From the UHGV virus genome UHGV-1709118: 61,628 nt of DNA; one strand, given 5' to 3'. The notes below the pieces were generated by a model. That model was not told the origin of the DNA. It searched no databases and saw only the letters and a list, made by a program, of their open reading frames with translations. This stretch comes from a virus. The position numbers and the translations under genes were made by a program. This document shows, in pieces, positions 6,990-57,101 of the stretch (positions within the stretch are counted from its first letter, which is position 1; each line of letters starts with the position of its first letter).

Positions 6990-8885
6990 TTATACTCTAG
7001 TTAGCACTTCTGTAGCTGTAATTGACATTGTGCCTGAATAAGTTAAAGGTAAAGTAATTTGAGAAATCGCATAATTTCCTATAATATTACTTTCCATATC
7101 TTCTATATAAATAATATTATTTGGTTCTAAATAATACTTGGGTACTCCTTGTATAGTAACTTGAGTATTATAACTTAAATTTTGATATAATAATTCTCGA
7201 ATTTGATCAAAAGCACTAGAACCAGTAGAACTACTAGCAAAAATAGATTTATAATTATCAGTAATTCTAAAATATTTTTGACCAATAGAATCATAATATT
7301 TTCTTTTTTCTACATTTTCCCATTGTTCTTGGGTCATAAAAATAACATCAGGAACTTCTGTATTATATATACAAGTTACTTCAGAACTATTAATAACTTT
7401 TGTGCGACGTCCAATCATATTGACTGAGTATTTACCAATTGCTGCACCAGTATCTATAAAATCTAGCCAATAATTTAAATTTCTAGGGTCAGAATAAACT
7501 TTTGGATTCCAATTATCTGTTGCTTTCCAATCTGCATTTTCAGGGTCATATAAATTACGCCATTCAGCTAATAGTTCCATATCATAATTACTATTTGTTA
7601 AATTATTTAAGGAAGCAATTAAAGCTTGTCTATATAATTCTTCTCGCCATTCTTTACAAGGACTAGCTATTAATTTACCATTAACAGGAGGATTATTTGT
7701 ATAAGTAAATTCATATCTTAATAAAACTTCATTCTCATAAATACCCCACATATATTGTAAACAATAATTAAGAATTGGTTTAGCATCAATAGCTAAATGA
7801 TAACGAATATCTATTTCTGCACCATCTGTTGTTTTTCTTTTTCCCCATACAATAAAATCATTTTTAATTTCATCATATTTTGGAGCAATAGCAAGAGAAG
7901 TAATATTATCTAAATCAGTTAAACTATAAGCATATTTTGTGTTTGAATAATTCTGCACATAATCTTCAATATTTAAATCTAATAGCGGACTTCCAGTGTT
8001 TAAATAATTTTTCTTTTCTTGAAAAATAAAACGTCCATCTATATCATAAAAAAATTCAAAATTGCCTAAAATATCGCAAATCTTATTTAATAAAGTAACT
8101 ACACTATCGCCAGCTTTTAAAATCAATTCTCCAGGATAAGTAAAATCTGTTTCTTTATATCCAATATCTTGTCCATTTATAAACATATAAGGATAAGTAT
8201 CTCCAGGAGTATAACTTAAACTAGAATAATTATTACTTAGATATATAGGTTGTTCTCCAATATATTTTACTAAAAGTTTTGCGGTTTCCTCTAAATCTGT
8301 AATAAAAATATTGTTTATTGGCTCTTCTCCCCAATGATTAACTGCTTCTTGAATAATTTGGTAAATAGTAGGGTAATTAACTACTGCTTCTGTTTTATCC
8401 TTATTATACACATATGATTCATGGAAAGTAACAGAAGCAGGTAACATTCCACCTACACTACCATCTAGCATTACCATTTTATCTTTACCAGAAATACTAA
8501 TAGTCCAACCACCAGTTGCTCTAGTAATACTAGCAGTAGAAACCAAAAAAACCCCGCAAGGAAACCAAATAATTTCTCCATATTTTTGATATTCTCTTAA
8601 AGGATTATTATATCCAATTAAAATTTTAATTTTTTTATTTAAAGAAATATCATTATCTAAATTTGTTAAATCATTATTATTTAAATTAGCCAACATAGTT
8701 AAGCTAATAGTTCTTCTAATTGCGGAAGAACCATTAATTGATAATGAACCGGCAGTAATATTACCTTGAATTTCTTTAATAGGTTTTTCATCAAAAGAAA
8801 GAAGAATAAGTTTTGCATATTGAACGCGAACTCGCAATTTATCTAACTTGTTTAAAAAATCATAATCTTTAAGATATTCAAACAT
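6990..8885 (-). CDS. baseplate or tail-fibre protein
   Basis: 631-aa ORF in tail module. Confidence 0.45.
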   Translation of the reverse strand: MFEYLKDYDFLNKLDKLRVRVQYAKLILLSFDEKPIKEIQGNITAGSLSINGSSAIRRTISLTMLANLNNNDLTNLDNDISLNKKIKILIGYNNPLREYQKYGEIIWFPCGVFLVSTASITRATGGWTISISGKDKMVMLDGSVGGMLPASVTFHESYVYNKDKTEAVVNYPTIYQIIQEAVNHWGEEPINNIFITDLEETAKLLVKYIGEQPIYLSNNYSSLSYTPGDTYPYMFINGQDIGYKETDFTYPGELILKAGDSVVTLLNKICDILGNFEFFYDIDGRFIFQEKKNYLNTGSPLLDLNIEDYVQNYSNTKYAYSLTDLDNITSLAIAPKYDEIKNDFIVWGKRKTTDGAEIDIRYHLAIDAKPILNYCLQYMWGIYENEVLLRYEFTYTNNPPVNGKLIASPCKEWREELYRQALIASLNNLTNSNYDMELLAEWRNLYDPENADWKATDNWNPKVYSDPRNLNYWLDFIDTGAAIGKYSVNMIGRRTKVINSSEVTCIYNTEVPDVIFMTQEQWENVEKRKYYDSIGQKYFRITDNYKSIFASSSTGSSAFDQIRELLYQNLSYNTQVTIQGVPKYYLEPNNIIYIEDMESNIIGNYAISQITLPLTYSGTMSITATEVLTRV

Positions 8886-37340: not shown

Positions 37341-37371
37341 TTATGAACTAAGAGTTTTTACTCTTAGTTCA
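37341..37371 (-). terminator. hairpin between terminase and endonuclease genes
   Basis: atgaactaagagt-tttt-actcttagttcat 13-bp stem. Confidence 0.4.
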
Positions 37372-39109
37372 TAAACATCAAATCTGCTACCTTAAAATGT
37401 TTGCGCTTACGTCTATTATCTTCCTCTTGTTTAATGTAATATAAACCATATTCTAAAGAAGATACTTTATCTTTTTTAATTTTTCTATTTACTTGTTTGA
37501 GAATAATATTAACACCTTCGTTTTCTTCTCGAAGGTTAGTTAGCTCTTCTTTAAGTATGGAAGTTAGACTAAATGGAATAACATATTTTGACCTTTCTCG
37601 TGGAGTCATACCTTGGCCCAATTTAGTTTCCATTAATTTCATCATTGCTTCACGTTCATCAAGTAAAAATTTTACTTTACCAGCATTTAATTGTGTTTGC
37701 AAATTAGCATGAGCTTCAGTATTAATTGTAGCATTTGCTTTAATTAAATACATTGCTTCATCTTCTGTATCATCAGTTCTAAATTTTTTATAATAATTTT
37801 CTTCATCATTATAAACACCAAAAGGTGGATAATATTCACCTGTTTTATCATCTTCTTGGACTTTTATCATATAATCAATAAGTCCAATACCTAAGCCATT
37901 CGCGTCTATTACCAAACGTTTTGCTTTATATTTATAATATAATTTTTTCAACATAATAGCTTGATTTTCAAAATGCTCATCTTCCATAGTTACTATATTA
38001 ACTAAGGATTTAATGGATGGGCCTTGTGGTTGCGGAATGACCTTTAAAATGCAAGCAACTGTATCGCAACCTTTACGTCCAACGTCTACAGAAACTACAT
38101 AATAAGAAGAAGCAGATGATCTTCCAGAATATTCATATTCTGGTTTTTGAATTTTTCTGTTTCTATCAAAAACCTCACTGTTAAAGAAAGCATCTTCAAC
38201 TGTTCCACTCCAGATCGACTCGTACTCTCGACCAAAGGAAGCTTCATTAAAAGTAGGGTCACGCTTTAAATTAATTAAGAAATCAGAATCTAATAATCCG
38301 ACTAACACAGGTATACGCCAAGAACCACCCATAACAATACTTTGCCCTGGATCAACCACCATACGTACTAACAAAGTAATAAGTTTTTCATAGGGAAATG
38401 TATTCTTCCAACCGGCTGTTGTAACGTATATCTGCGACTTATTTAAGGATTCTTCGGGGTGGACAGAACCATCCATACATCTACGTGAAACGTTCATTGT
38501 AGGGATTATCACTTCATTTAGTATAGTTCCATCTACACCAACGCATTCCTCAACTAGTCCGCCATGTCTACGTTTACCACGTGAACTTTCTTTAGCCGCT
38601 ACAATATCAAAATAACTACCACTTTTAAATTTATATATACAATAATCTTTACTAATTTGAGTTTGTCCTCTTCCCCAATCAATTTCTTTTTTAAAAGCTG
38701 GTACAAGTTTACATATTTCTTCTACCTTTTCTTTCACAATTGTAGCTGCCTGCTCTTTACCACCGGAAGTAACAAACAACTTTGCACCAGGGTAAAGTAC
38801 ACAACGACACATTAAAACCAGAATCGAAAGAAAAGATTTACTGTACGCTCGAGGAAAGGTCATGTATACATATTTATAACGCATCGCAGCTCTAAGAAAG
38901 ACCCGCTGATAGTAGTAAAATTCTAGTTGTTTTTTACGAGAACTATCTCCTCCGTCCTGTAAAAAATCCACAAATAAATCTGGATATTCTCGCCAAAAAG
39001 AAATATATTGACGAGCAACAGGTAAAATAGCTCTTATTCTCTCTTCTGAAATACCTATTTTTTTTCTATTATTAGATAATTCTAATAATTGTTGTAATGC
39101 CATTATCAT
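37364..39109 (-). CDS. terminase large subunit
   Basis: 581-aa ORF; Walker-A-like PRAYSKSF, nuclease-like VSVDVGRKG and LVIDANGLG segments; sits before portal. Confidence 0.7.
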   Translation of the reverse strand: MIMALQQLLELSNNRKKIGISEERIRAILPVARQYISFWREYPDLFVDFLQDGGDSSRKKQLEFYYYQRVFLRAAMRYKYVYMTFPRAYSKSFLSILVLMCRCVLYPGAKLFVTSGGKEQAATIVKEKVEEICKLVPAFKKEIDWGRGQTQISKDYCIYKFKSGSYFDIVAAKESSRGKRRHGGLVEECVGVDGTILNEVIIPTMNVSRRCMDGSVHPEESLNKSQIYVTTAGWKNTFPYEKLITLLVRMVVDPGQSIVMGGSWRIPVLVGLLDSDFLINLKRDPTFNEASFGREYESIWSGTVEDAFFNSEVFDRNRKIQKPEYEYSGRSSASSYYVVSVDVGRKGCDTVACILKVIPQPQGPSIKSLVNIVTMEDEHFENQAIMLKKLYYKYKAKRLVIDANGLGIGLIDYMIKVQEDDKTGEYYPPFGVYNDEENYYKKFRTDDTEDEAMYLIKANATINTEAHANLQTQLNAGKVKFLLDEREAMMKLMETKLGQGMTPRERSKYVIPFSLTSILKEELTNLREENEGVNIILKQVNRKIKKDKVSSLEYGLYYIKQEEDNRRKRKHFKVADLMFMN

Positions 39110-44694: not shown

Positions 44695-45077
44695 TTTTAA
44701 ATTTCTGCGAAATTTAAAATCAGAAGGAGAGAAAATATTTTAGAAATTCGTTTTTTGAATTTAAAATTGATTTGTATCCTTTTTCAAATTTAAAAATAGT
44801 TTAGAGAGGGAAATGTCCAGGCCAAATGGTTTTTAATAACAAATATAATTTTTTTCCCGAAAACTACCCCGGAGTACGCCAAACCATTAAACTATCTTTC
44901 ATTGGTAAATATCCATTGACCCCACAAAGGCCCCATCAAACAGTATCTTCTGTAAACAACCATTCATTAATCAAAAGAGAAATGATCTTGTCAATAGGCA
45001 AATTAAACAAAATTATTCTTCAGCAAAACGCATAAAGAAGAACTCTTAATTTCTTTTTCTTTTGTTCAATGTGTCAA

Positions 45078-45106
45078 TAGACAAAAGGCTATCTCGATGG
45101 TATAAT
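45078..45106 (+). promoter_or_regulatory. early promoter
   Basis: TAGACA, 17-bp spacer, TGgTATAAT, then conserved leader acagaaattaagg. Confidence 0.45.
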
Positions 45107-46438: not shown

Positions 46439-46507
46439 AAAAAAGTCTTGACAAGAAGCTCAGTCTGTGGTATTATATAATCAAGATAAAGAAAGGGGAA
46501 ACAAAAG

Positions 46508-46861: not shown

Positions 46862-47083
46862 ATGATAACAATCCTTCACAAAGCAGGTATTGCTTTCAGG
46901 GGAGAATATCTCCGGGAAGCTTGCAGGAAGAACTACGATTGGCTTACTTTAATGTATGCCGTTGAAGATTATAACCGCGCTGTGAAGCGTTACTACAAGT
47001 ATGTTTCTCGCCACCACGCAGTTATCCTTAACAAATATCCTTCTGGCGATGTTATCGCTCTTGAAGAAGGGGTAATTCTATAA
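46862..47083 (+). CDS. hypothetical early protein
   Basis: 73-aa ORF followed by terminator 47084-47104. Confidence 0.45.
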   Translation: MITILHKAGIAFRGEYLREACRKNYDWLTLMYAVEDYNRAVKRYYKYVSRHHAVILNKYPSGDVIALEEGVIL

Positions 47084-47199
47084 GGGCCGCAAGGCCCTTT
47101 TTCTTTTTGTTATATGCTTATATGGTGAAACTTCTAGGCTTCTAGCAGTAAAAAAAAAAAAAAATAAATAAATAAAAATTTTTTTTGTTCAATTTACCT

Positions 47200-47228
47200 A
47201 TTGACAGCAAAGCAAAAGTATGGTATAA
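47200..47228 (+). promoter_or_regulatory. early promoter followed directly by GC-rich hairpin (no ORF)
   Basis: TTGACA 47200-47205, 17-bp spacer, TGgTATAAT 47220-47228; hairpin 47238-47272. Confidence 0.5.
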
Positions 47229-47462
47229 TAATTGCGGCGGCGCGCACACGACCATGGCCTCCCAGTGTGCGCCGAAATTCTGTCAATACGCAAATTGCAC
47301 AAAAATTTAGAGGAAAGTTTGGTGATTTTGCCCAGAAGTATTCATCCCGAAATGGTGTTTGTTTATAAAAAGTATAGCGGCAAAATATCATCAAAATTGA
47401 TTATTGAATTTCTTAAAAATTTTTGTTATAATAATTACAGAAAACAAAAGGAGGTCAAAAGT

Positions 47463-47624
47463 ATGACTGAATACCGTGACTGGTTGGTAGTTTTCCCCAA
47501 TGGTGGACAGATACACTTTGATAACAAGGGTATCGCAATGCGGAACGCGACTCGCAAGAAAGGCTCTGTTTATGAGTGTCATCTGGAAGAGAATGGGAAT
47601 GAAACTCTCATTCATATCTTTTGA
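47463..47624 (+). CDS. hypothetical small protein
   Basis: 53-aa ORF from ATG 47463 with RBS aaggagg; track ORF 47232-47624 N-terminal extension spans promoter/hairpin and is rejected. Confidence 0.4.
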   Translation: MTEYRDWLVVFPNGGQIHFDNKGIAMRNATRKKGSVYECHLEENGNETLIHIF

Positions 47625-47877: not shown

Positions 47878-48333
47878 ATGACTGACAAGATGTTGGCTTT
47901 TGATATGGACGGCACTATTGCTGACCTGTATGGAGTTAATGGTTGGCTGTCTAAACTGCGGAAGGAAGATGCAAGCCCTTACCTGGAAGCTAAACCCATG
48001 TGGGATGTGGATAAGCTCAACGAGCTTATCAATAAACTAAAGCAGGCTGGTTGGGAGATTGCAATCATCACTTGGCTTTCTAAAGAAAGCAGTCCTGAGT
48101 ATGCAAAGGCTGTGCGAGAAGCTAAAAAGGCTTGGCTCTTGAAATGGGGTTTCCCCTATGATCATTTTCATGGTCTAAAGTATGGAGCTACTAAAGCGAA
48201 TGCTGTTCGTAGAAAAGCATCTAAGGCAATTCTTATTGATGATAATAAGAAGGTTCGTGATAGTTGGCATTTGGGAGAAACTGTCAATCCTGAAACTTGT
48301 GACATCATTGATTTTTTGGCTTCCCTGCTTTAA
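47878..48333 (+). CDS. HAD-superfamily phosphatase, 5-prime(3-prime)-deoxyribonucleotidase-like
   Basis: N-terminal FDMDGTIADL motif (DxDGT); start at ATG 47878 after promoter and RBS. Confidence 0.55.
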   Translation: MTDKMLAFDMDGTIADLYGVNGWLSKLRKEDASPYLEAKPMWDVDKLNELINKLKQAGWEIAIITWLSKESSPEYAKAVREAKKAWLLKWGFPYDHFHGLKYGATKANAVRRKASKAILIDDNKKVRDSWHLGETVNPETCDIIDFLASLL

Positions 48334-48415: not shown

Positions 48416-49123
48416 ATGAGCATTGATAGGCGCAGACATTATGTTCTGCTTCTGGACACTGAGACAGCAAACACCATCACTGACCAAAAAGGCCGATTAG
48501 ACATGACCTCAGTTCTTGTCTATGATTGCGGGTGGTGTGTTATGGACACAAGAGGAAATATCTACAAGGAACAATCCTTTGTTAATCGAGATATTTTCTT
48601 TGATGAAAGTGAGCTTATGAAATCCGCCTACTATGCGGAAAAGATTCCCCAGTATCTGGAAGATATTCGACAGGGTATCCGGCAAGTAGCTAACACTTAC
48701 CAGATTCGACAGGCTATGCTTGCAGACATGGCAGAATATGGTATTACAGAGGTAGTTGCCCACAATGCAAGATTCGACCTGAACGCATTGAATTTACTTC
48801 AACGCTGGACTACCAAAAGTAAATATCGCTATTGGTTCCCCTATGGTACCGATATTTGGGATACTCTCAAAATGGCAAGAGACGTTATTCTAAAGATGCC
48901 TACCTATAAAAGGTTCTGTGAACAACACGGTTTCTTAACCAAAACTGGTAAACTCTCAGCGACAGCAGAAAATTTGTATAGATTCATCTCCAAAGACCCT
49001 ACTTTTCAGGAAGAACATAAAGGTCTTGACGATGTGCGAATTGAGCGAGAGATTATGGTCTACTGCTATCGGCAAAAGAAGAAAATGCGGAAAAAACTTT
49101 TTGAAAATCAAAAAACCGCTTGA
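48416..49123 (+). CDS. DnaQ-like 3-prime-5-prime exonuclease (DEDDh)
   Basis: Exo motifs LLLDTETAN, VAHNARFDL, EHKGLDDV. Confidence 0.6.
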   Translation: MSIDRRRHYVLLLDTETANTITDQKGRLDMTSVLVYDCGWCVMDTRGNIYKEQSFVNRDIFFDESELMKSAYYAEKIPQYLEDIRQGIRQVANTYQIRQAMLADMAEYGITEVVAHNARFDLNALNLLQRWTTKSKYRYWFPYGTDIWDTLKMARDVILKMPTYKRFCEQHGFLTKTGKLSATAENLYRFISKDPTFQEEHKGLDDVRIEREIMVYCYRQKKKMRKKLFENQKTA

Positions 49124-49232: not shown

Positions 49233-49589
49233 ATGACTAACGAGAAGAAGATTACTAACAAGGGCGCCCTTCAGTATGTTCTGGACAACTGCGAGATTCC
49301 TGCCGACGTTCGTGCCAAGATTGAGATTCTGCTCCATCAGCAGGAGAACAAGAGCCGCGGTAGTGGTAAGCCTACTGCAACTCAGACTGAGAACGCACGT
49401 CTGATTGAGGTGATTGCCGACACTCTGCCCAAGGGCGAAGCTTTCACCATCTCCGACATTACCAAGACCATTCCTGAGCTGAACGGCTTTACCCCTCAGA
49501 AGGTTGGCCCCATGCTCAAGAAGCTGGTTGAAACTGGTCGAGCCACCCGTGACACCAACAAGGGCAAGGCATACTACACTATGGTGTAA
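49233..49589 (+). CDS. hypothetical protein, paralog of 55318-55734 (possible winged-helix)
   Basis: shared motifs with 55318 ORF (QTEN...LI...KTIPEL...TPQ...PM.K.LV..G.A..DT.KG.A); about 50 percent GC. Confidence 0.5.
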   Translation: MTNEKKITNKGALQYVLDNCEIPADVRAKIEILLHQQENKSRGSGKPTATQTENARLIEVIADTLPKGEAFTISDITKTIPELNGFTPQKVGPMLKKLVETGRATRDTNKGKAYYTMV

Positions 49590-49648
49590 TAATTAAATAA
49601 AGAGGGGCATTAAGCCCCTCTTTATTTTCTCAAAAAGGATGGTGTTTA

Positions 49649-50011
49649 ATGATAGATGAGACTAGGGTTAAACATCTTCAAAAGGTGTTAGACCTTGATA
49701 GAGAACAAGCTTTAGCAGTTATTGCCGATGATGAAGCAATAGATAAAGGTGCAGATCTTTTCCCACTTACTGATGAACAAAAGAAAGTAGAAAAGAAAAT
49801 GCGGTTATCCGGCAAAGAGAAAGGCAAGTATACTATGAATGCTCCCCGACAGCGCAAGGTTGACAATGACAAACATCGCTTGATTGAGATTATTGCGGAA
49901 TCTCTTGAACAACTTGAAATTGAAACTACCATCAATAACCCAGAACGAGAAATTGAGATAGTTTTTAATGAAAGACGTTTCAAAATTACATTAAGCGCTC
50001 CTAGAAAATAA
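49649..50011 (+). CDS. hypothetical protein, paralog of 55759-56148
   Basis: shared DKG...LT-EQ-KV-KK ... LI ... NPER-I ... F ... TL motifs. Confidence 0.5.
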   Translation: MIDETRVKHLQKVLDLDREQALAVIADDEAIDKGADLFPLTDEQKKVEKKMRLSGKEKGKYTMNAPRQRKVDNDKHRLIEIIAESLEQLEIETTINNPEREIEIVFNERRFKITLSAPRK

Positions 50012-50263
50012 TAATAAAACCGGCTTATTTTTTATAGGCCGGTTTTCTTTTTTGCCCAATACTTTTTAATGGCAAATGTTTGACGGCCCGCGCATGGTCA
50101 AGCGCTGCCGCATTTCAATTATACCAGGTAATCCGACTTTTGTCAATGGGCAAACCGCACAATTATTTGACTTTTTGTTTTCCCAAAATTGGTGATTCTG
50201 CCTATTGATTTTTTTATTAAAATTTTATATAATATAATTGTTCCAAGGGAAAGGAGAAACAAA

Positions 50264-50458
50264 ATGAAGATTAATTATAAATCTTTCAGCGTGGAAGTTT
50301 TTGGTGAAAATATTTGGGGCCAAACCTATCTGAACAGAGTAGGCTTTGATTCTGAGGAAGAAGCCGATAAGTTCATTGAATCTCTGGAAAAGGAAGAAGG
50401 AATTTATTCGGCAATTAAAATTGTAAATACAAGTTACAATTTCAGAAAAAACCCTTGA
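50264..50458 (+). CDS. hypothetical small protein
   Basis: ATG 50264 with RBS aaaggaga. Confidence 0.4.
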   Translation: MKINYKSFSVEVFGENIWGQTYLNRVGFDSEEEADKFIESLEKEEGIYSAIKIVNTSYNFRKNP

Positions 50459-50515
50459 CAAACAAACCAAGACGTGTTATAATAAACACAGAAATTAAGA
50501 AAGAGGTTGATAATT

Positions 50516-50737
50516 ATGAAAGCAAGCACTAACACAAAAATCAATATCGACATCACCGGCATCTGCATGTGGTTCCTCTCTTCCCTCTTCATTTGGCTGG
50601 GCTGGAAAGTTCTGGTGGCTCACTTCGGCTTGCCTTACTTTACCTATCTGGAAATCTTCGCCATGCGTATGGGGCTGGATGGTCTTGCAAGCATCTTCCG
50701 CAAGAAAAAAGAAGTGGAAGGCGAAAATAAGGCTTGA
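50516..50737 (+). CDS. small membrane protein
   Basis: 73-aa ORF with hydrophobic core; promoter TTGACA 50455-50460. Confidence 0.45.
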   Translation: MKASTNTKINIDITGICMWFLSSLFIWLGWKVLVAHFGLPYFTYLEIFAMRMGLDGLASIFRKKKEVEGENKA

Positions 50738-50762
50738 CAAACGTCAAGCCGAATGGTATAAT
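50734..50762 (+). promoter_or_regulatory. early promoter with palindromic -35 region
   Basis: TTGACA 50734-50739 inside palindrome ggcttgac-aaac-gtcaagcc (50731-50750); TGgTATAAT 50754-50762. Confidence 0.5.
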
Positions 50763-50786
50763 AATAACAGAAAGAGGTTGATGTAA

Positions 50787-50930
50787 ATGATTTCTACTAT
50801 TGCTCTGGCTTCCCTGGCTGCTATTATGATGGTGAAGGTGTTCGTTGCGGTTGAGCGTGAGGATTACCGCAAAATGTTCGCTAGCGGATTTGAGTTCGCT
50901 CTTCTGCTTCTGACTTTGGCTAATATTTAA
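50787..50930 (+). CDS. small hydrophobic peptide (47 aa, not in ORF track)
   Basis: ATG 50787 after agaggttgatg; open to TAA 50928-50930. Confidence 0.3.
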   Translation: MISTIALASLAAIMMVKVFVAVEREDYRKMFASGFEFALLLLTLANI

Positions 50931-50943
50931 GGAGGTAAATATA

Positions 50944-51192
50944 ATGAGAATTTATTCTATTAAACATCTGTTCGACAAAGAAGTTGCTGGTTTTTATCGA
51001 GAAATGAAAGAAAGCGTTGAAACAAAAGAAGAAGTAGAAAATGCCGTTTATCTGGTAATGGGTATGCAGGTTATGGCAAGTATTATCGCCGAAGGAAGTG
51101 ATGAAGAGGTTCTTGCCATTGAACATGAAACTTGGGATTATTGGATTCCAAAGTTTAAGAAACTTCTGGAAAATCTTCCTGAAAAGACTTGA
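50944..51192 (+). CDS. hypothetical early protein
   Basis: 82-aa ORF with RBS aaggaggt. Confidence 0.45.
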   Translation: MRIYSIKHLFDKEVAGFYREMKESVETKEEVENAVYLVMGMQVMASIIAEGSDEEVLAIEHETWDYWIPKFKKLLENLPEKT

Positions 51193-51217
51193 CATACGTC
51201 AAGTTCTATGATATAAT
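51189..51217 (+). promoter_or_regulatory. early promoter with palindromic -35 region
   Basis: TTGACA 51189-51194 inside palindrome acttgac-atac-gtcaagt (51187-51204); TGaTATAAT. Confidence 0.5.
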
Positions 51218-51248
51218 AAAGCCATAATAAAGAAAGGAAGTCGATATC

Positions 51249-51446
51249 ATGACTAAAGAAGAACTTTTAAACACTTTGCAGGAGGTCGGCTATGAATGGA
51301 GCAGAACGCTCAATGAGCACAAGTATGACTACTCGGATTTCGAGTGGAAGATGCTCGGCTGGGTAGCTGGTGAATTGATTGACCATTTCGATCAGGCAAT
51401 TGATTCAATTCGTGATGAACTTCAGGAGGAGGAAGAAGAAGAATGA
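51249..51446 (+). CDS. hypothetical acidic small protein
   Basis: 65-aa ORF. Confidence 0.45.
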   Translation: MTKEELLNTLQEVGYEWSRTLNEHKYDYSDFEWKMLGWVAGELIDHFDQAIDSIRDELQEEEEEE

Positions 51447-51691
51447 GAATGACAGAAAGAATCGAGAGATTTTTCAATCTTGATGAAGAGGAGAAGGAAA
51501 TTCTCAAAAAGGCTAGTTATATTCTCTGCGACATGGCAGAAAATGTTGATGGTTTAGGAAAAATTTCCTTAACTTATGAGAATTTTACTGAACCATTCGC
51601 AAAAACTCGGAGTTATGATGAAGGGAATCTTTATGATTTCTCATACCTATTAGCTGTTCTTTCTAAGGCAGAAACAATTGAAATTGAATAA
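51443..51691 (+). CDS. hypothetical early protein
   Basis: 82-aa ORF overlapping previous stop; terminator 51695-51719 follows. Confidence 0.45.
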   Translation: MRMTERIERFFNLDEEEKEILKKASYILCDMAENVDGLGKISLTYENFTEPFAKTRSYDEGNLYDFSYLLAVLSKAETIEIE

Positions 51692-51776
51692 AAATAAGGG
51701 CCTTTGGCCCTTATTTTTTACTTGACAGATTTTTCTTTCTATGTTATAATAACAATAGAAAAGGAGATGAAGCAAA

Positions 51777-51980
51777 ATGACAGATTTTGCAAGAACTGAA
51801 ATTCTTCTTAAAGCTTTACAGGAAGCAGGAAGATACATGCGGAAATATTTACCCGCAGAAATGCCATTAGGCGAAGATGCTGATATTACAAGATACTGTT
51901 TAATAAATGGTAATCAAGACCCGGAAGGCTCTAAGTTTGTAGAATACTTCATTCTTAAAGCATTTGATAATTATAAGTAA
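51777..51980 (+). CDS. hypothetical early protein
   Basis: 67-aa ORF after promoter TTGACA 51722-51727 and RBS aaggaga. Confidence 0.45.
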   Translation: MTDFARTEILLKALQEAGRYMRKYLPAEMPLGEDADITRYCLINGNQDPEGSKFVEYFILKAFDNYK

Positions 51981-52226
51981 GGGCTAAAAGCCCTTACTTT
52001 TTTATTTCTATATTTATTATAAACAAAAGTCAAGTGATAGTAAAGTTTGGCGGCGCGTTGATGGCTGACATGCGCCGCAATTTAATTATACCTCAAGCCA
52101 CGCCTTTTGTCAAGAGCAAAAGTGCATAAAAACAAGGCAGACAAAAATCCCGAATTTGTGCATTTCGCCAATAGACAAATAAGACCTGCCGTGTTATACT
52201 ATAATCACAGTAAGGGAGGAGATAAC

Positions 52227-52937: not shown

Positions 52938-53336
52938 ATGAAAGCTACTGGTATCATTCGCCGCATCGATGACCTGGGTCGGGTGGTCATCCCCAAGGAA
53001 ATCCGCCACAATATGCACATCTGGGAAGGAGACCCTTTGGAGATTTATACTGCTTCGGATGAAATTGTTCTCCGCAAGTATGTTCCATCCGCAGAAAACA
53101 AGGCTTCTATTGCTCAGAAGTGGTTAGAGGACAATGCTCATATGTTATATGGCACTTCTGCAAAGTTCAGTATTGAGGGCAGAACTACTGTTTGCGAAGT
53201 TATCAGCAATAATCATCGCCTGACTGGAAAAGCAACAGCCACAACAAATGACACTTTCATTCCCGCGGTTGGTATGGTTATTGCTTATTGCCGAGCCGTT
53301 GGTTGGACTATTCCCAAAGAACTTATTGAGGATTAA
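52938..53336 (+). CDS. AbrB/SpoVT-family transcriptional regulator-like protein
   Basis: N-terminus GIIRRIDDLGRVVIPKEIRHNMHIWEGDPLEIY...IVLRKY matches AbrB swapped-hairpin domain signature. Confidence 0.6.
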   Translation: MKATGIIRRIDDLGRVVIPKEIRHNMHIWEGDPLEIYTASDEIVLRKYVPSAENKASIAQKWLEDNAHMLYGTSAKFSIEGRTTVCEVISNNHRLTGKATATTNDTFIPAVGMVIAYCRAVGWTIPKELIED

Positions 53337-54835: not shown

Positions 54836-54881
54836 AAAAATGAGGGATTTTTCCCTCATTTTTTTTTGTACATTTTGCCTA

Positions 54882-54910
54882 TTGACAAAACCGCAGCTTT
54901 ATGGTACAAT
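54882..54910 (+). promoter_or_regulatory. promoter driving ORF-free GC-rich hairpin transcript
   Basis: TTGACA 54882-54887, 17-bp spacer, TGgTACAAT 54902-54910. Confidence 0.5.
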
Positions 54911-55020
54911 GGCGCGGCGCCCACGGCTGTGGAGCGCCGAAATTTCAATTATACCACGCGGCACAAAATTTGTCAAGAGTTAAACTGCACAAAATCTATT
55001 TGGGAAAAATCCCACTTTTT
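54911..55020 (+). ncRNA. candidate small RNA (5-prime GC hairpin, weak terminator)
   Basis: promoter immediately upstream; hairpin 54911-54939; gggaaaaatccca + T-run at 55001-55020; no RBS-ATG ORF. Confidence 0.3.
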
Positions 55021-55317
55021 GTGCAATTTGCCTATTGCAATTTGGGTGAAATCTGATATAATAAATAATGTCAGGAGGGAGTAGCCCAAGAAATCCTAGG
55101 GCGGCCGACTTAGAGAAAGTATAGGAAGTAAACGGAATACATCAAGTGGTAAGTCTTATATCATGTGGTAATTGTTATTGCCCAACATGCTCTGGAAGCC
55201 GTAAATCTTGTGAAAAGTTTGCGAAACCTCTTGACAAACCCCAAGAAACATGCTATAATAAGCATGTAATCAAGAGAAGGACAAACTCTTAAAAACCAGA
55301 AAGCGAGATAGGTGTTT

Positions 55318-55734
55318 ATGGAAAATACTAACAAGAGAATTACTAAGCGTGAGCGTTTCCAGTCTTTGATTGAGCTGGTGGAACTGTGCGAAGGCCGTGA
55401 GGATGAAGGCTTTGACTTTGAGGGTCTGACCGATTTCCTTTCCAATGAGATTCGCCTGCTGGACGCTAAGAAGGGTTCCAATTCCCGCAAGCAGACTGCC
55501 CGCCAGACTGAGAATGAGCATTTTAAGGCTCTGATTGCCGAGCGGTTGACCGAAGAGGGCATGACTATTGCAATGCTCCGCAAGACCATTCCTGAACTGG
55601 AGGATTTGACTCCCCAGCGTATTGCCCCTATGTGCAAGGCTCTTGTCTCTGAGGGTATTGCTTACAAGGATACCTGCAAGGGTATCGCCCACTTTTACAA
55701 GGCGCAGGCCGTAGTAGAAGAGGAAGAGGGCTAA
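55318..55734 (+). CDS. hypothetical protein, paralog of 49233-49589
   Basis: see paralog; ATG 55318. Confidence 0.5.
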   Translation: MENTNKRITKRERFQSLIELVELCEGREDEGFDFEGLTDFLSNEIRLLDAKKGSNSRKQTARQTENEHFKALIAERLTEEGMTIAMLRKTIPELEDLTPQRIAPMCKALVSEGIAYKDTCKGIAHFYKAQAVVEEEEG

Positions 55735-55758
55735 GGCCCTCTTCCCTAGAAGGGAGGT

Positions 55759-56148
55759 ATGTTTTTGGATAAAGCAAAAGAAGCAATCGCAAGAATCCAA
55801 GCCGGCATCAAATGCAGCTATGAAAAAGCAGTAGAAATCTATAAGACAGATTGCGAGGTTGACAAAGGCATCCCGCATGAATGGGATTTGACCGAGGAAC
55901 AGCAAAAGGTAGCAAAGAAATATACTATTACCGGGCAACATACTAAGAAGCATGACCGCAAGGCTCCGGTCAAAAGAGAAAGAAAAGAGAACCCCACTAA
56001 AGCAAATTTGATTGCGGAACTTGCAGGTTTTCTTGAATCTTTGGGGATTTGTGACGTAAAAATTGCAAATCCTGAGCGACAGATTGCTTTTTCTGTGGAT
56101 AATAACGCCTTTGAGCTGACTTTAGTTCAAAAAAGGGCCAAAAAGTAA
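55759..56148 (+). CDS. hypothetical protein, paralog of 49649-50011
   Basis: see paralog; RBS gggagg. Confidence 0.5.
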   Translation: MFLDKAKEAIARIQAGIKCSYEKAVEIYKTDCEVDKGIPHEWDLTEEQQKVAKKYTITGQHTKKHDRKAPVKRERKENPTKANLIAELAGFLESLGICDVKIANPERQIAFSVDNNAFELTLVQKRAKK

Positions 56149-56205: not shown

Positions 56206-56550
56206 ATGCAACAAAAGAAAGAGTATTTGTATGTAGGTCACTATTTTGACATAGAAGGCAACTACATTCTCAAAATAGGCACTACTAACGATTTAGCCCG
56301 GAGACAGCAAGAGCATACCAGAAATTATAAGCGTTCACCTAAGTTTACTATGCCGAAATCCGCTAAGTTTGTCTATGATTGGCATCTGCCTTTATCTAAG
56401 TATTCAACTTTGCGGTATGAGGATAAGAATCGTGCAGCATGGCAGGAATCTTCTATCGGCGAATTTGTCCGCAATGACAGATTTTGCTGTAAGCAAAAGC
56501 CCAAGAAAGTAAAGGTTACTATCCGCAAAACTTATGAGATCGAGTTATAA
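56206..56550 (+). CDS. GIY-YIG-like nuclease domain protein
   Basis: YLYVGHY...ILKIGTTNDLARRQQEH resembles GIY-YIG motif (GIY ... YIG-T-N-L-R ... E/H). Confidence 0.4.
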   Translation: MQQKKEYLYVGHYFDIEGNYILKIGTTNDLARRQQEHTRNYKRSPKFTMPKSAKFVYDWHLPLSKYSTLRYEDKNRAAWQESSIGEFVRNDRFCCKQKPKKVKVTIRKTYEIEL

Positions 56551-56782: not shown

Positions 56783-57101
56783 CGGTTACCAAAGGATAGT
56801 GGTTAATAGCCACTATCCTTTTTTATCCCTATACTTGTTATAAGCAAAAGTAAAGTAATAACAAAACTCAGCGGGCCGCACTTGGTGGATGCGGCCCGAA
56901 TTCGCGTCAATACACATTTTCCACAATTTTTCTGCTTTTGATTTGTACAATTTTACTTATTGACATTTTCCTAAAATTATGTTATTATATAATCACAAAA
57001 GGAAAGGGGATTTAAAAATTTCAAAAAAATAAAAAAGGTCTTGACAAACCAGGGCAAAGATGCTATAATGAATACAGAAATTAAGGAAAGAGGTTGATAG
57101 T

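Follow-up and report, generated by a model that had tools for sequence, protein, structure and literature searches.

What is encoded where a promoter of maximal strength fires directly into a GC-rich hairpin, an inverted copy of its own upstream element follows, and no ORF with a ribosome-binding site and an ATG begins before position 47463? A preliminary description of this arrangement had offered three readings: a small RNA, an attenuator or the relic of an inverted promoter cassette. We analysed the locus within the 61.6-kb stretch of DNA in which it lies (hereafter, the window), in related phages and alongside known promoter and hairpin elements.

The window has a GC content of 32 %. Its large terminase gene is located on the minus strand (37364–39109), and the product is 33–60 % identical to the terminases of a phage record from a human fecal sample and of large phages of Enterococcus and Geobacillus, of the gut phage Phass-1 and of SPbeta-like phages. 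Late genes occupy the minus strand up to ~41 kb, and small early genes, each with its own promoter, are found on the plus strand from 41.5 kb onward; the interval 42–61.6 kb contains 17 perfect TTGACA-17-TATAAT promoters, nearly all of which have an extended −10. A megablast search of the region against deposited phages returned no match, distant blastn returned a partial match in Phass-1 only, and an exact scan for the hairpin recovered a single IMG/VR relative and nothing from the JGI metagenome collection. Further relatives were gathered through the 53-aa product of the ORF at 47463–47624, an identical protein being encoded on at least 24 metagenome contigs, and conservation was judged from an alignment of 12 close relatives. 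The locus, referred to here as unit 1, is composed of the following parts:

47149–47187, plus strand: pure A/T tract separating the upstream gene's terminator from the box
47185–47206, plus strand: composite upstream box and −35 (TTGTTCAATTTACCTATTGACA) of the rightward promoter, with 2 mismatches to the 22-mer motif
47201–47229, plus strand: sigma-70/sigma-A-type promoter P_B, TTGACA-17-TATAAT with TG, scoring 12/12
47238–47274, no strand assigned: GC-clamped stem-loop, recognised by RNA fold, covariance model match and GC island
47281–47302, minus strand: inverted composite box and −35 (TTGTGCAATTTGCGTATTGACA), 6 nt from the hairpin, without spacer or −10, 0 mismatches
47318–47338, plus strand: decayed box and −35 (TTTGGTGATTTTGCCCAGAAG), aligning with the box and −35 of the gene-proximal promoters of units 2–4
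47344–47353, plus strand: ATCCCGAAAT motif, read from the sequence without a statistical test
47404–47432, plus strand: second, weaker promoter, TTGAAT-17-TATAAT with TG, scoring 10/12 and directly serving the 53-aa ORF
47463–47624, plus strand: 53-aa ORF, with ribosome-binding site AAAGGAGG at 47449–47456

Each of the elements originally reported is present. P_B is a 12/12 promoter with an extended −10 (−35 TTGACA, 47201–47206; 17-bp spacer; TG, 47221–47222; −10 TATAAT, 47224–47229) that is kept in the 12 relatives, and its spacing predicts a transcription start at ~47234–47237, 1–4 nt ahead of the hairpin. In the computed fold of 47234–47282 (−19.8 kcal/mol), 47238–47247 pairs with 47265–47274 above which a 3-bp inner stem forms; the gcgcacac/gtgtgcgc register first described (47242–47249/47265–47272) is an equally valid alternative. 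Beyond the hairpin, the minus strand of 47281–47302 reads the composite motif TTGTGCAATTTGCNTATTGACA with 0 mismatches, and this motif has 7 matches in the window at ≤3 mismatches against 0.01 expected. The region up to 47463 is indeed free of an ORF with a ribosome-binding site and ATG, but the promoter at 47404–47432 had been overlooked; it is invariant in the 12 relatives and lies ~30 nt upstream of the ribosome-binding site of the ORF, whose 53-aa product has no family match. The ATCCCGAAAT motif also occurs upstream of box promoters elsewhere in the window and in relatives, including Phass-1.

The fold energy of the unit-1 hairpin is not significant in its own right (z = −1.5 only against dinucleotide shuffles), because any GC-rich 49-mer folds well. 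Its significance comes from context, since the window contains only five 30-nt stretches of ≥72 % GC and all five are such hairpins beside promoter elements, four of them directly adjoining a consensus promoter. Conservation in related phages, which the preliminary description had made a test of its proposal, was found both for the unit and for the wider family described below. Unit 1 is kept in 12/12 relatives, at an identity about that of the genome as a whole; the 8-bp inner stem is constant but for one T to C change (L290), while the loop and outer 5′ arm vary, as does the length of the A/T tract.

The three other regions that had been suggested for comparison (50086–50160, 52049–52120 and 54911–54990) proved to be true homologues, all matching the covariance model on the minus strand at 40–52 bits, and a further copy brings the number of units within 47–57 kb to five:

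Unit 2, 50074–50162, minus strand: box and −35 at 50141–50162, −10 at 50118–50123, hairpin at ~50081–50111; 39.9 bits
Unit 3, 52041–52130, minus strand: −35 at 52108–52113, −10 at 52085–52090, hairpin at 52049–52078; 48 bits
Unit 4, 54866–54993, both strands: two convergent promoters, P_B at 54882–54910 (plus, TACAAT) and P_A at 54976–54948 (minus, 12/12), around one hairpin (54915–54939); 52.2 bits
Unit 5, 56872–56926, minus strand: hairpin at 56872–56898, then 6 nt, TTGACG at 56905–56910 and a box at 56921–56926, without a −10

The hairpins fold at −14 to −20 kcal/mol across the units, and the surrounding ORFs (50–250 aa) are mostly without a family match. Three layouts can be distinguished. 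Units 2 and 3 have a single promoter firing into the hairpin (from 50146 and 52113, minus strand), in the order box, −35, TG, −10, an A/T-rich discriminator of 6–8 nt (TGAAAT/TAAATT) and a hairpin starting (G)CGGC. Both are oriented opposite to the genes around them, and transcription from them would meet the terminator of the gene upstream, which for unit 2 is the bidirectional terminator at 50016–50046. Unit 4 has convergent promoters on both sides of its hairpin (54882, plus; 54976, minus). Units 1 and 5 are 'one-and-a-half' promoters, in which the opposing promoter keeps its −35 and box and is without its spacer and −10; the layout of unit 5 is that of the minus strand of unit 1. Alignment of four modules presented unit 1 as the unit-4 module from which the spacer and −10 of the opposing promoter are missing, followed by the decayed third box at 47318–47338. 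In units 2–4, the distance from the minus-strand −35 to the gene-proximal plus-strand −35 is exactly 59 bp.

The same anatomy is found well outside the window. In IMG/VR, scans with degenerate patterns picked out dozens of low-GC contigs of 80–200 kb carrying it, from which, followed by a search with covariance model R1, we gathered the family. A seed alignment of 32 sequences (A1, MAFFT) is a nearly gap-free 51-nt unit, TATAAT-GGAAATTT-CGGCGC-NNN-(7-nt loop)-NNN-GCGC(GC)CG-CCAAA, whose inner pairs covary (GC 12/CG 9; AU 10/CG 8). R1 detected 93 copies at E ≤ 0.01 in 84 loci (777 kb) of related gut and rumen Clostridia phages, with 3–5 copies per locus, or 3–5 per 10–14 kb. CGGCGC/GCGCCG forms the base of the stem, above which the inner stem and loop vary, and even the pairs of this base switch type (CGCCGC/GCGGCG, CCGGGC/GCCCGG). 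In the R1 alignment, 83 % of cells are paired, against 27–57 % when partners are slid, and 84 cells have changes in both partners, where shuffles give 26.8 ± 3.6; this alignment was fitted to the model and so leans toward structure, but the independent MAFFT seed agrees. A maximal-strength host-type promoter abuts a GC-clamped hairpin of which the pairing, not the sequence, is conserved. On the unit-1 hairpin itself, the model returned 17.4 bits on the minus strand (47228–47280), where there is no −10, versus 10.3 bits on the plus strand.

Among 101 non-redundant promoter and hairpin units, an inverted −35 lies within 16 nt after the hairpin in 20, and a convergent −10 is present in 16. Units of the B type, which have a short GC-rich discriminator like that of the promoter at 47201, have T-rich tails (3.7 T per 10 nt, e.g. 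AGTTTTTGTCAA), and those of the A type (GGAAATTT type) have A-rich tails (1.6 T and 3.9 A per 10 nt). The intact promoter is antisense to its neighbours in 3/5 window copies and apparently often elsewhere, although the latter is a trend only, as flanking genes were oriented there by the longest ORF, which is too noisy for small early genes.

The inverted motif of unit 1 is the −35 and upstream box of an opposing promoter, the promoter that is intact in unit 4 (54882/54976) and that here lacks the 17-bp spacer and the −10. It is most simply read as the remnant of a convergent partner, because one-and-a-half, convergent and single layouts recur in the family and because the family model gives the hairpin its higher score on the minus strand, from which the −10 is missing. 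A possible route can be proposed from the sequences. Intact units carry A/T-rich strings that are alike after the −35 and after the −10 (in unit 4, TTGAC-AAATTT...TATAATTG-AAATTT-CGGCGC), and the opposing promoter may have lost its spacer and −10 through a ~23-bp deletion between these short repeats 3′ of the −35 and of the −10 (compare unit 4, TTGACAAATTT...TATAATTGAAATTTCGGCGC, with unit 1, TTGACAGAATTTCGGCGC). Such a slippage deletion in unit-4-like sequence would predict TTGACAAATTTCGGCGC, where the minus strand of unit 1 reads TTGACAGAATTTCGGCGC; the leader variant GGAAAACTCGGCGC (L141, L167 and L283) would likewise predict TTGACAAAAACTCGGCGC, which is found in the L125 clade. We infer this microhomology step from these comparisons. 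Repeat-mediated deletion would allow the same layout to arise repeatedly, with either convergent partner being the truncated one, and the truncated partner does differ between L132 and L188 on the one hand and L125 and the window on the other.

The earlier suggestion of a relic of an inverted promoter cassette is therefore largely borne out by the alignment with unit 4, the strand fit, unit 5 and the recombination described below. As the one-and-a-half layout occurs in 20/101 units and in many distant phages, however, it is a recurrent state of a conserved family and no single accident. An inverton was also considered and rejected: inverted repeats are present (19/22 identical), but the orientation is the same in 12/12 relatives, the segment spans just 74 bp and the neighbouring genes include no recognisable recombinase.

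Comparison of near-identical genomes located gene gain and loss at the cassettes, most clearly at one block of the early region:

50155–52120, plus strand: block of five small ORFs, 1,966 bp, bounded by units 2 and 3 and missing in two relatives that have a single chimeric unit

In the first of these, IMG/VR contig L065+L034 (93–96 % identical to the window), the two pieces abut exactly at one chimeric unit that takes its upstream half from unit 3 and its −35, −10 and hairpin from unit 2, with 50155–52120 absent. The second, L297, which was found via the identical 53-aa protein, has the same unit-3/unit-2 fusion and also lacks 50155–52120. The crossover lies at TTGACA in L297 and 5 nt further on, in 'gcaaa', in L065+L034, and the differing points indicate two independent events. 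L034 additionally carries a 480-bp cassette of gene, terminator and promoter at the window promoter 46448–46476, with the crossover in the two −10 boxes ('tggTAT'). Three relatives have lost the ORF that follows unit 2, and in 4/11 relatives the gene preceding unit 1 has been exchanged, at least three versions of it occurring among the 12 relatives; these swaps break at the ribosome-binding site and terminator of that gene, not in unit 1, and homology resumes right after the terminator. As read from these junctions, cassette copies are crossover points for the gain and loss of blocks of small early genes.

On balance, and with moderate confidence, we favour the view that a composite early-promoter/stem-loop cassette, of which this segment is one of five copies in the early region, provides transcriptional punctuation and portable homology in a PeSL-like manner. 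Under this composite-cassette reading, host RNA polymerase would start at ~47234–47237, which would place the hairpin at the very 5′ end of the RNA. The hairpin of unit 1 would then act as a 5′ structural cap and at most as a leaky stop, because the tail that follows it (GAAAUUCUGUC) is a poor U-run. Read-through RNA would run on for ~190 nt and join the transcripts from the ORF's own promoter (47404–47432). At the level of the genome, the cassettes would punctuate transcription between early-gene modules and supply portable homology for their shuffling, as PeSLs do.

The closest known kind is the promoter-early stem-loop (PeSL) cassette of T4-like myoviruses, in which a strong sigma-70-like early promoter is combined with a G+C-rich stem-loop whose position varies, including just after the −10; PeSLs repeat in hyperplastic, orphan-ORF-rich regions, where modules are shuffled at them (Arbiol et al. 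2010, PMC2839356; Comeau et al. 2014, PMC4122927). Effective termination at the stem-loop and the excision of mini-circles are further PeSL traits. The present family shares with them a strong early promoter (12/12 with a 17-bp spacer and TG at 47201–47229, and the same at units 2–4), an adjacent stable G+C-rich stem-loop (−14 to −20 kcal/mol, with covariation in 93 copies), numerous copies within a plastic, orphan-ORF-rich early region, and indel or replacement crossovers inside cassettes between near-identical phages (L034, L297 and 46448–46476). It differs in belonging to large Clostridia phages rather than to T4-like phages of Proteobacteria, with no sequence relationship between the two, and in its stem base, CGGCGC/GCGCCG here as opposed to the GGGG...CCCC stem motif of PeSLs. 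In addition, the hairpin is transcribed here from position +2 to +5, many promoters point against genes, convergent pairs are common and include perfect promoters around one hairpin, and there is an extra conserved upstream box. On this comparison, the family is an analogue of PeSLs and not a homologous member. That an analogue unrelated in sequence exists in about a hundred copies in large uncultured phages of gut and rumen Clostridia, with two independent recombination events at one pair of units, suggests that phage early regions have a general solution in the cassette-mediated shuffling of modules.

Strong antisense promoters that would transcribe no more than a hairpin and a terminator are retained, which punctuation by itself does not account for. 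A tentative alternative, which we consider possible but unlikely, is that each cassette is a tiny gene and that the GC-clamped hairpin RNA (fixed stem of ~27 nt, 7-nt loop) is the product that matters. Such RNAs would constitute a new class, minute and highly abundant, transcribed by perfect promoters from one strand or the other and acting in trans early in infection as a ligand or decoy of a phage or host protein, for instance a host factor that binds or senses RNA. Their 3′ ends would be set by a U-tract of their own, by the bidirectional terminator of a neighbour or by the promoter facing them; the convergent and one-and-a-half units would then differ in how the RNA is ended, and unit 1 would be the copy read from the other side. 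Single-promoter copies, combining promoter, hairpin and a shared terminator, would give RNAs of ~60–110 nt, and those of units 2 and 4, which run into bidirectional terminators, are predicted at ~100–110 nt. Terminators within 40 nt are enriched after these copies (A type, 14/48 versus 54/505 control positions), the maximal promoters have GG discriminators, and promoters that are antisense to flanking genes make no mRNA. The near-constant length (27–28 nt) and semi-conserved 7-nt loop (~WSRRMCG) of single-promoter hairpins hint at a specific ligand. Against a trans-acting RNA, the copies share no conserved single-stranded seed (the sole linker is the A-tract of the shared terminator), their inner stems are unlike one another, and units 1 and 5 have no promoter on the strand that matches the model. 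G-U and A-C pairs are also equally frequent in the stems (22 versus 23), so that there is no strand-specific RNA signature and RNA is not separated from DNA as the selected form. Rfam 15 gave no match for the whole window at the gathering threshold, and at E up to 10 gave only chance-level, terminator-like matches within 44.5–55.4 kb. Of the hallmarks of an independent small-RNA gene, promoter and structure are present, and a terminator is present at units 2 and 4 but not at unit 1.

Short constitutive phage transcripts of this general kind are familiar from phage λ, where very strong promoters give short terminated RNAs (PR′-6S RNA and oop RNA), and the pR and pL promoters of coliphage 186 form a face-to-face switch, 62 bp apart. 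The window units resemble these in coupling a strong promoter to a predicted short terminated RNA and in having convergent promoters tens of bp apart. However, neither elements nor genes of the Q, N or put type were identified here, and the units occur as five copies per region, mostly antisense to local genes, rather than as one switch. The perfect promoters that converge on one hairpin lie ~45 bp apart, and a literature search for phage elements combining convergent promoters and a hairpin returned nothing specific.

The perfect consensus match of the inverted motif is odd for a decaying relic and is not explained by a repeat deletion, and the recurrence of the one-and-a-half layout could equally reflect selection for a second protein-binding site. 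This leads to a distinctly unlikely alternative, in which TTGTGCAA-N8-TTGACA is the binding site of a regulator and the inverted copy is a second operator that brackets the promoter core, acting through looping or as a roadblock, such that early promoters of this class would be switched on or off together. A precedent for a box acting as operator is provided by SPBRE of SPbeta, a short promoter-associated element that this large Firmicutes phage carries at about ten early promoters and to which the repressor MrpR binds; its description includes no hairpin (PMC10516654), and we liken it to the box here by description, not by sequence. The 22-mer is strongly over-represented and occurs in both orientations at a subset of promoters, other phages have promoterless arrays and palindromic pairs of it (L138 and L164), and it extends to the distant relative Phass-1. 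The perfect consensus of the inverted copy, the constant 59 bp between divergent −35 boxes in units 2–4 and a gene for an AbrB/MazE-type DNA-binding protein at 52938–53336 would also suit an operator pair. However, the 9-mer box alone is not enriched (36 versus 32) and only its fusion to the −35 is, as expected for duplicated promoters, and remnant boxes have diverged in the L125 clade and among close relatives. No binding protein was identified, and PDB sequence searches with the candidate regulator paralogues 49233 and 55318 returned no match.

Attenuation of the ORF at 47463, with the hairpin acting as a promoter-proximal terminator that restrains the strong promoter until a factor relieves it, had been among the original suggestions and is very unlikely to account for unit 1. 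The order of promoter, hairpin and ORF would suit it, as would the B-type copies of other phages, whose hairpins precede genes, have AGUUUUU-type tails richer in T than those of single-promoter copies (3.7 versus 1.6 per 10 nt) and look like promoter-proximal terminators, unlike the window copy. Unit 1 itself has no U-run within 0–2 nt of the hairpin, which the terminator scan does not list, and in single-promoter copies an A-run follows. No antiterminator or other competing fold stands out (47234–47480, z = −1.47, with the hairpin arms pairing in no other way), an invariant promoter of its own serves the ORF, and three sister units point away from genes.

The −10/+1 region of the A-type units (TATAAT-N7-TCGGCGC), and this region only, bears a striking likeness to host stable-RNA promoters, which we regard as a lead and not a finding. 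The scan of host genomes recovered ~35 Oscillospirales promoters of the form TGnTATAAT-N6-7-(G)TCGGCGC with a small hairpin at +1, upstream of tRNA genes and 16S leaders and in taxa carrying phage units. That the cassette copies or mimics such a promoter, and thereby couples the phage units to the host growth state or titrates a factor, is nevertheless extremely unlikely. The search pattern forced CGGCGC, the host hairpins are shorter and paired in another register, and the host leaders score ≤21 bits with R1 (E 0.3–0.6), too low for the phage units to be placed in a stable-RNA leader family. A role as tRNA promoters was likewise rejected, as tRNA genes were found neither in the window nor next to phage units.

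The chance that the locus is a DNA-level element, either a replication origin or a cruciform recombination site, is close to negligible, as the 39-nt A/T tract beside unit 1, the boxes in both orientations, the palindrome with its conserved base and variable interior, and the recombination at units are set against five copies within 10 kb, the lack of long A/T tracts at the other units, crossovers that fall in promoter boxes and not in the hairpin, and no association with an initiator or HUH-type gene. Mimicry of a CRISPR repeat (RNA anti-CRISPR) was rejected by reasoning, since stem interiors differ within one phage and the loops are long.

Finally, for the composite cassette as we favour it, the covariance model together with the 22-mer box offers a searchable signature for the early regions, and likely hosts, of such phages. 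The cassette occurs widely among related large phages whose hosts are gut and rumen Clostridia of the Oscillospirales type, and a scan of one genome per species identified phage-type units in MAGs labelled, among others, Oscillospiraceae, Lachnospiraceae, Acutalibacteraceae, Eubacteriales and Clostridia, which came from human, rabbit and ruminant guts.

The following genes lie around the promoter and GC-hairpin cassettes (units):

47878-48333, HAD-type nucleotidase-like protein
48416-49123, probable DnaQ-like exonuclease (weak PHROG match, with DEDD-type motifs recognized by eye)
52938-53336, AbrB/MazE-type DNA-binding protein (match 1e-9), encoded among the units
56206-56550, T5orf172-domain protein, encoded among the units

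The nucleotidase-like and DnaQ-like genes have units no more than a few kb away in 46 and 48, respectively, of the 83 family loci from related gut and rumen Clostridia phages, and mark a conserved early/DNA-metabolism neighbourhood. The AbrB/MazE-type protein is a candidate regulator binding the box, the conserved upstream promoter element. The window also carries two paralogous gene pairs, one ending at unit 2 (49233-50011) and the other following unit 4 (55318-56148), with products of 118/120 aa and 138/129 aa; these paralogues have homologues in 13–25 of the 83 family loci and returned no match in Pfam or PDB.

Comparison with relatives of 93–97 % identity revealed further differences at the level of cassettes. 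The 64-aa ORF after unit 2 (50265-50446) is missing by deletion from three relatives (L291, L293 and L298), and the 73-aa ORF before unit 1 (46862-47083) is replaced in four (L294, L297, L295 and L034) by unrelated ORFs of 116 or 85 aa, where called. L034 additionally carries a 480-bp gene, extra relative to the window, at 46468-46496.

The nearest named relative having the promoter grammar of the window is the gut phage Phass-1 (Acc: OQ749652), which is filed under the 'Caudoviricetes code 15 clade', with TAG recoded (PMC10607447). Recoding is not evident in the window, as its long late ORFs are uninterrupted under the standard code.

Reading the sequence, we noted a motif, (A)TCCCGAAA(T), directly 5′ of the TTGTGCAA boxes of gene-proximal promoters; its conservation reaches Phass-1 (about 1090, 3095 and 5300). 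This motif and further promoter elements of the window are:

47344-47353, 50185-50195, 52147-52156 and 55008-55014, (A)TCCCGAAA(T) copies
44989-45010, minus strand, another inverted box and -35; its sole -10 (ATTAAT) is weak, and a GC hairpin is absent
45078-45106, plus strand, TAGACA-17-TATAAT promoter
55035-55062, box promoter

The inverted box/-35 and the plus-strand promoter, 84 bp apart, constitute a divergent module in a hairpin-less version. The 55035-55062 promoter is followed by ~170 nt lacking an ORF (55035-55230 with the promoter included), a stretch that starts aataatGTCAGGAGGGAgtagccc; the same 'TATAAT...GTCAGGAGGGcaagag' occurs downstream of a promoter in Phass-1 (about 7120-7230). 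The stretch may represent another case of a conserved leader or non-coding RNA.

Finally, a genome scan whose pattern required CGGCGC returned tRNA/rRNA operon promoters of hosts (L194-L288, e.g. L225 2567-2702, L231 and L252), mostly from Oscillospirales-type Clostridia MAGs, with the arrangement TTGACA-17-TGnTATAAT-N6-7-(G)TCGGCGC. These promoters have a short hairpin where the transcript begins, 20–35 nt 5′ of the first tRNA.
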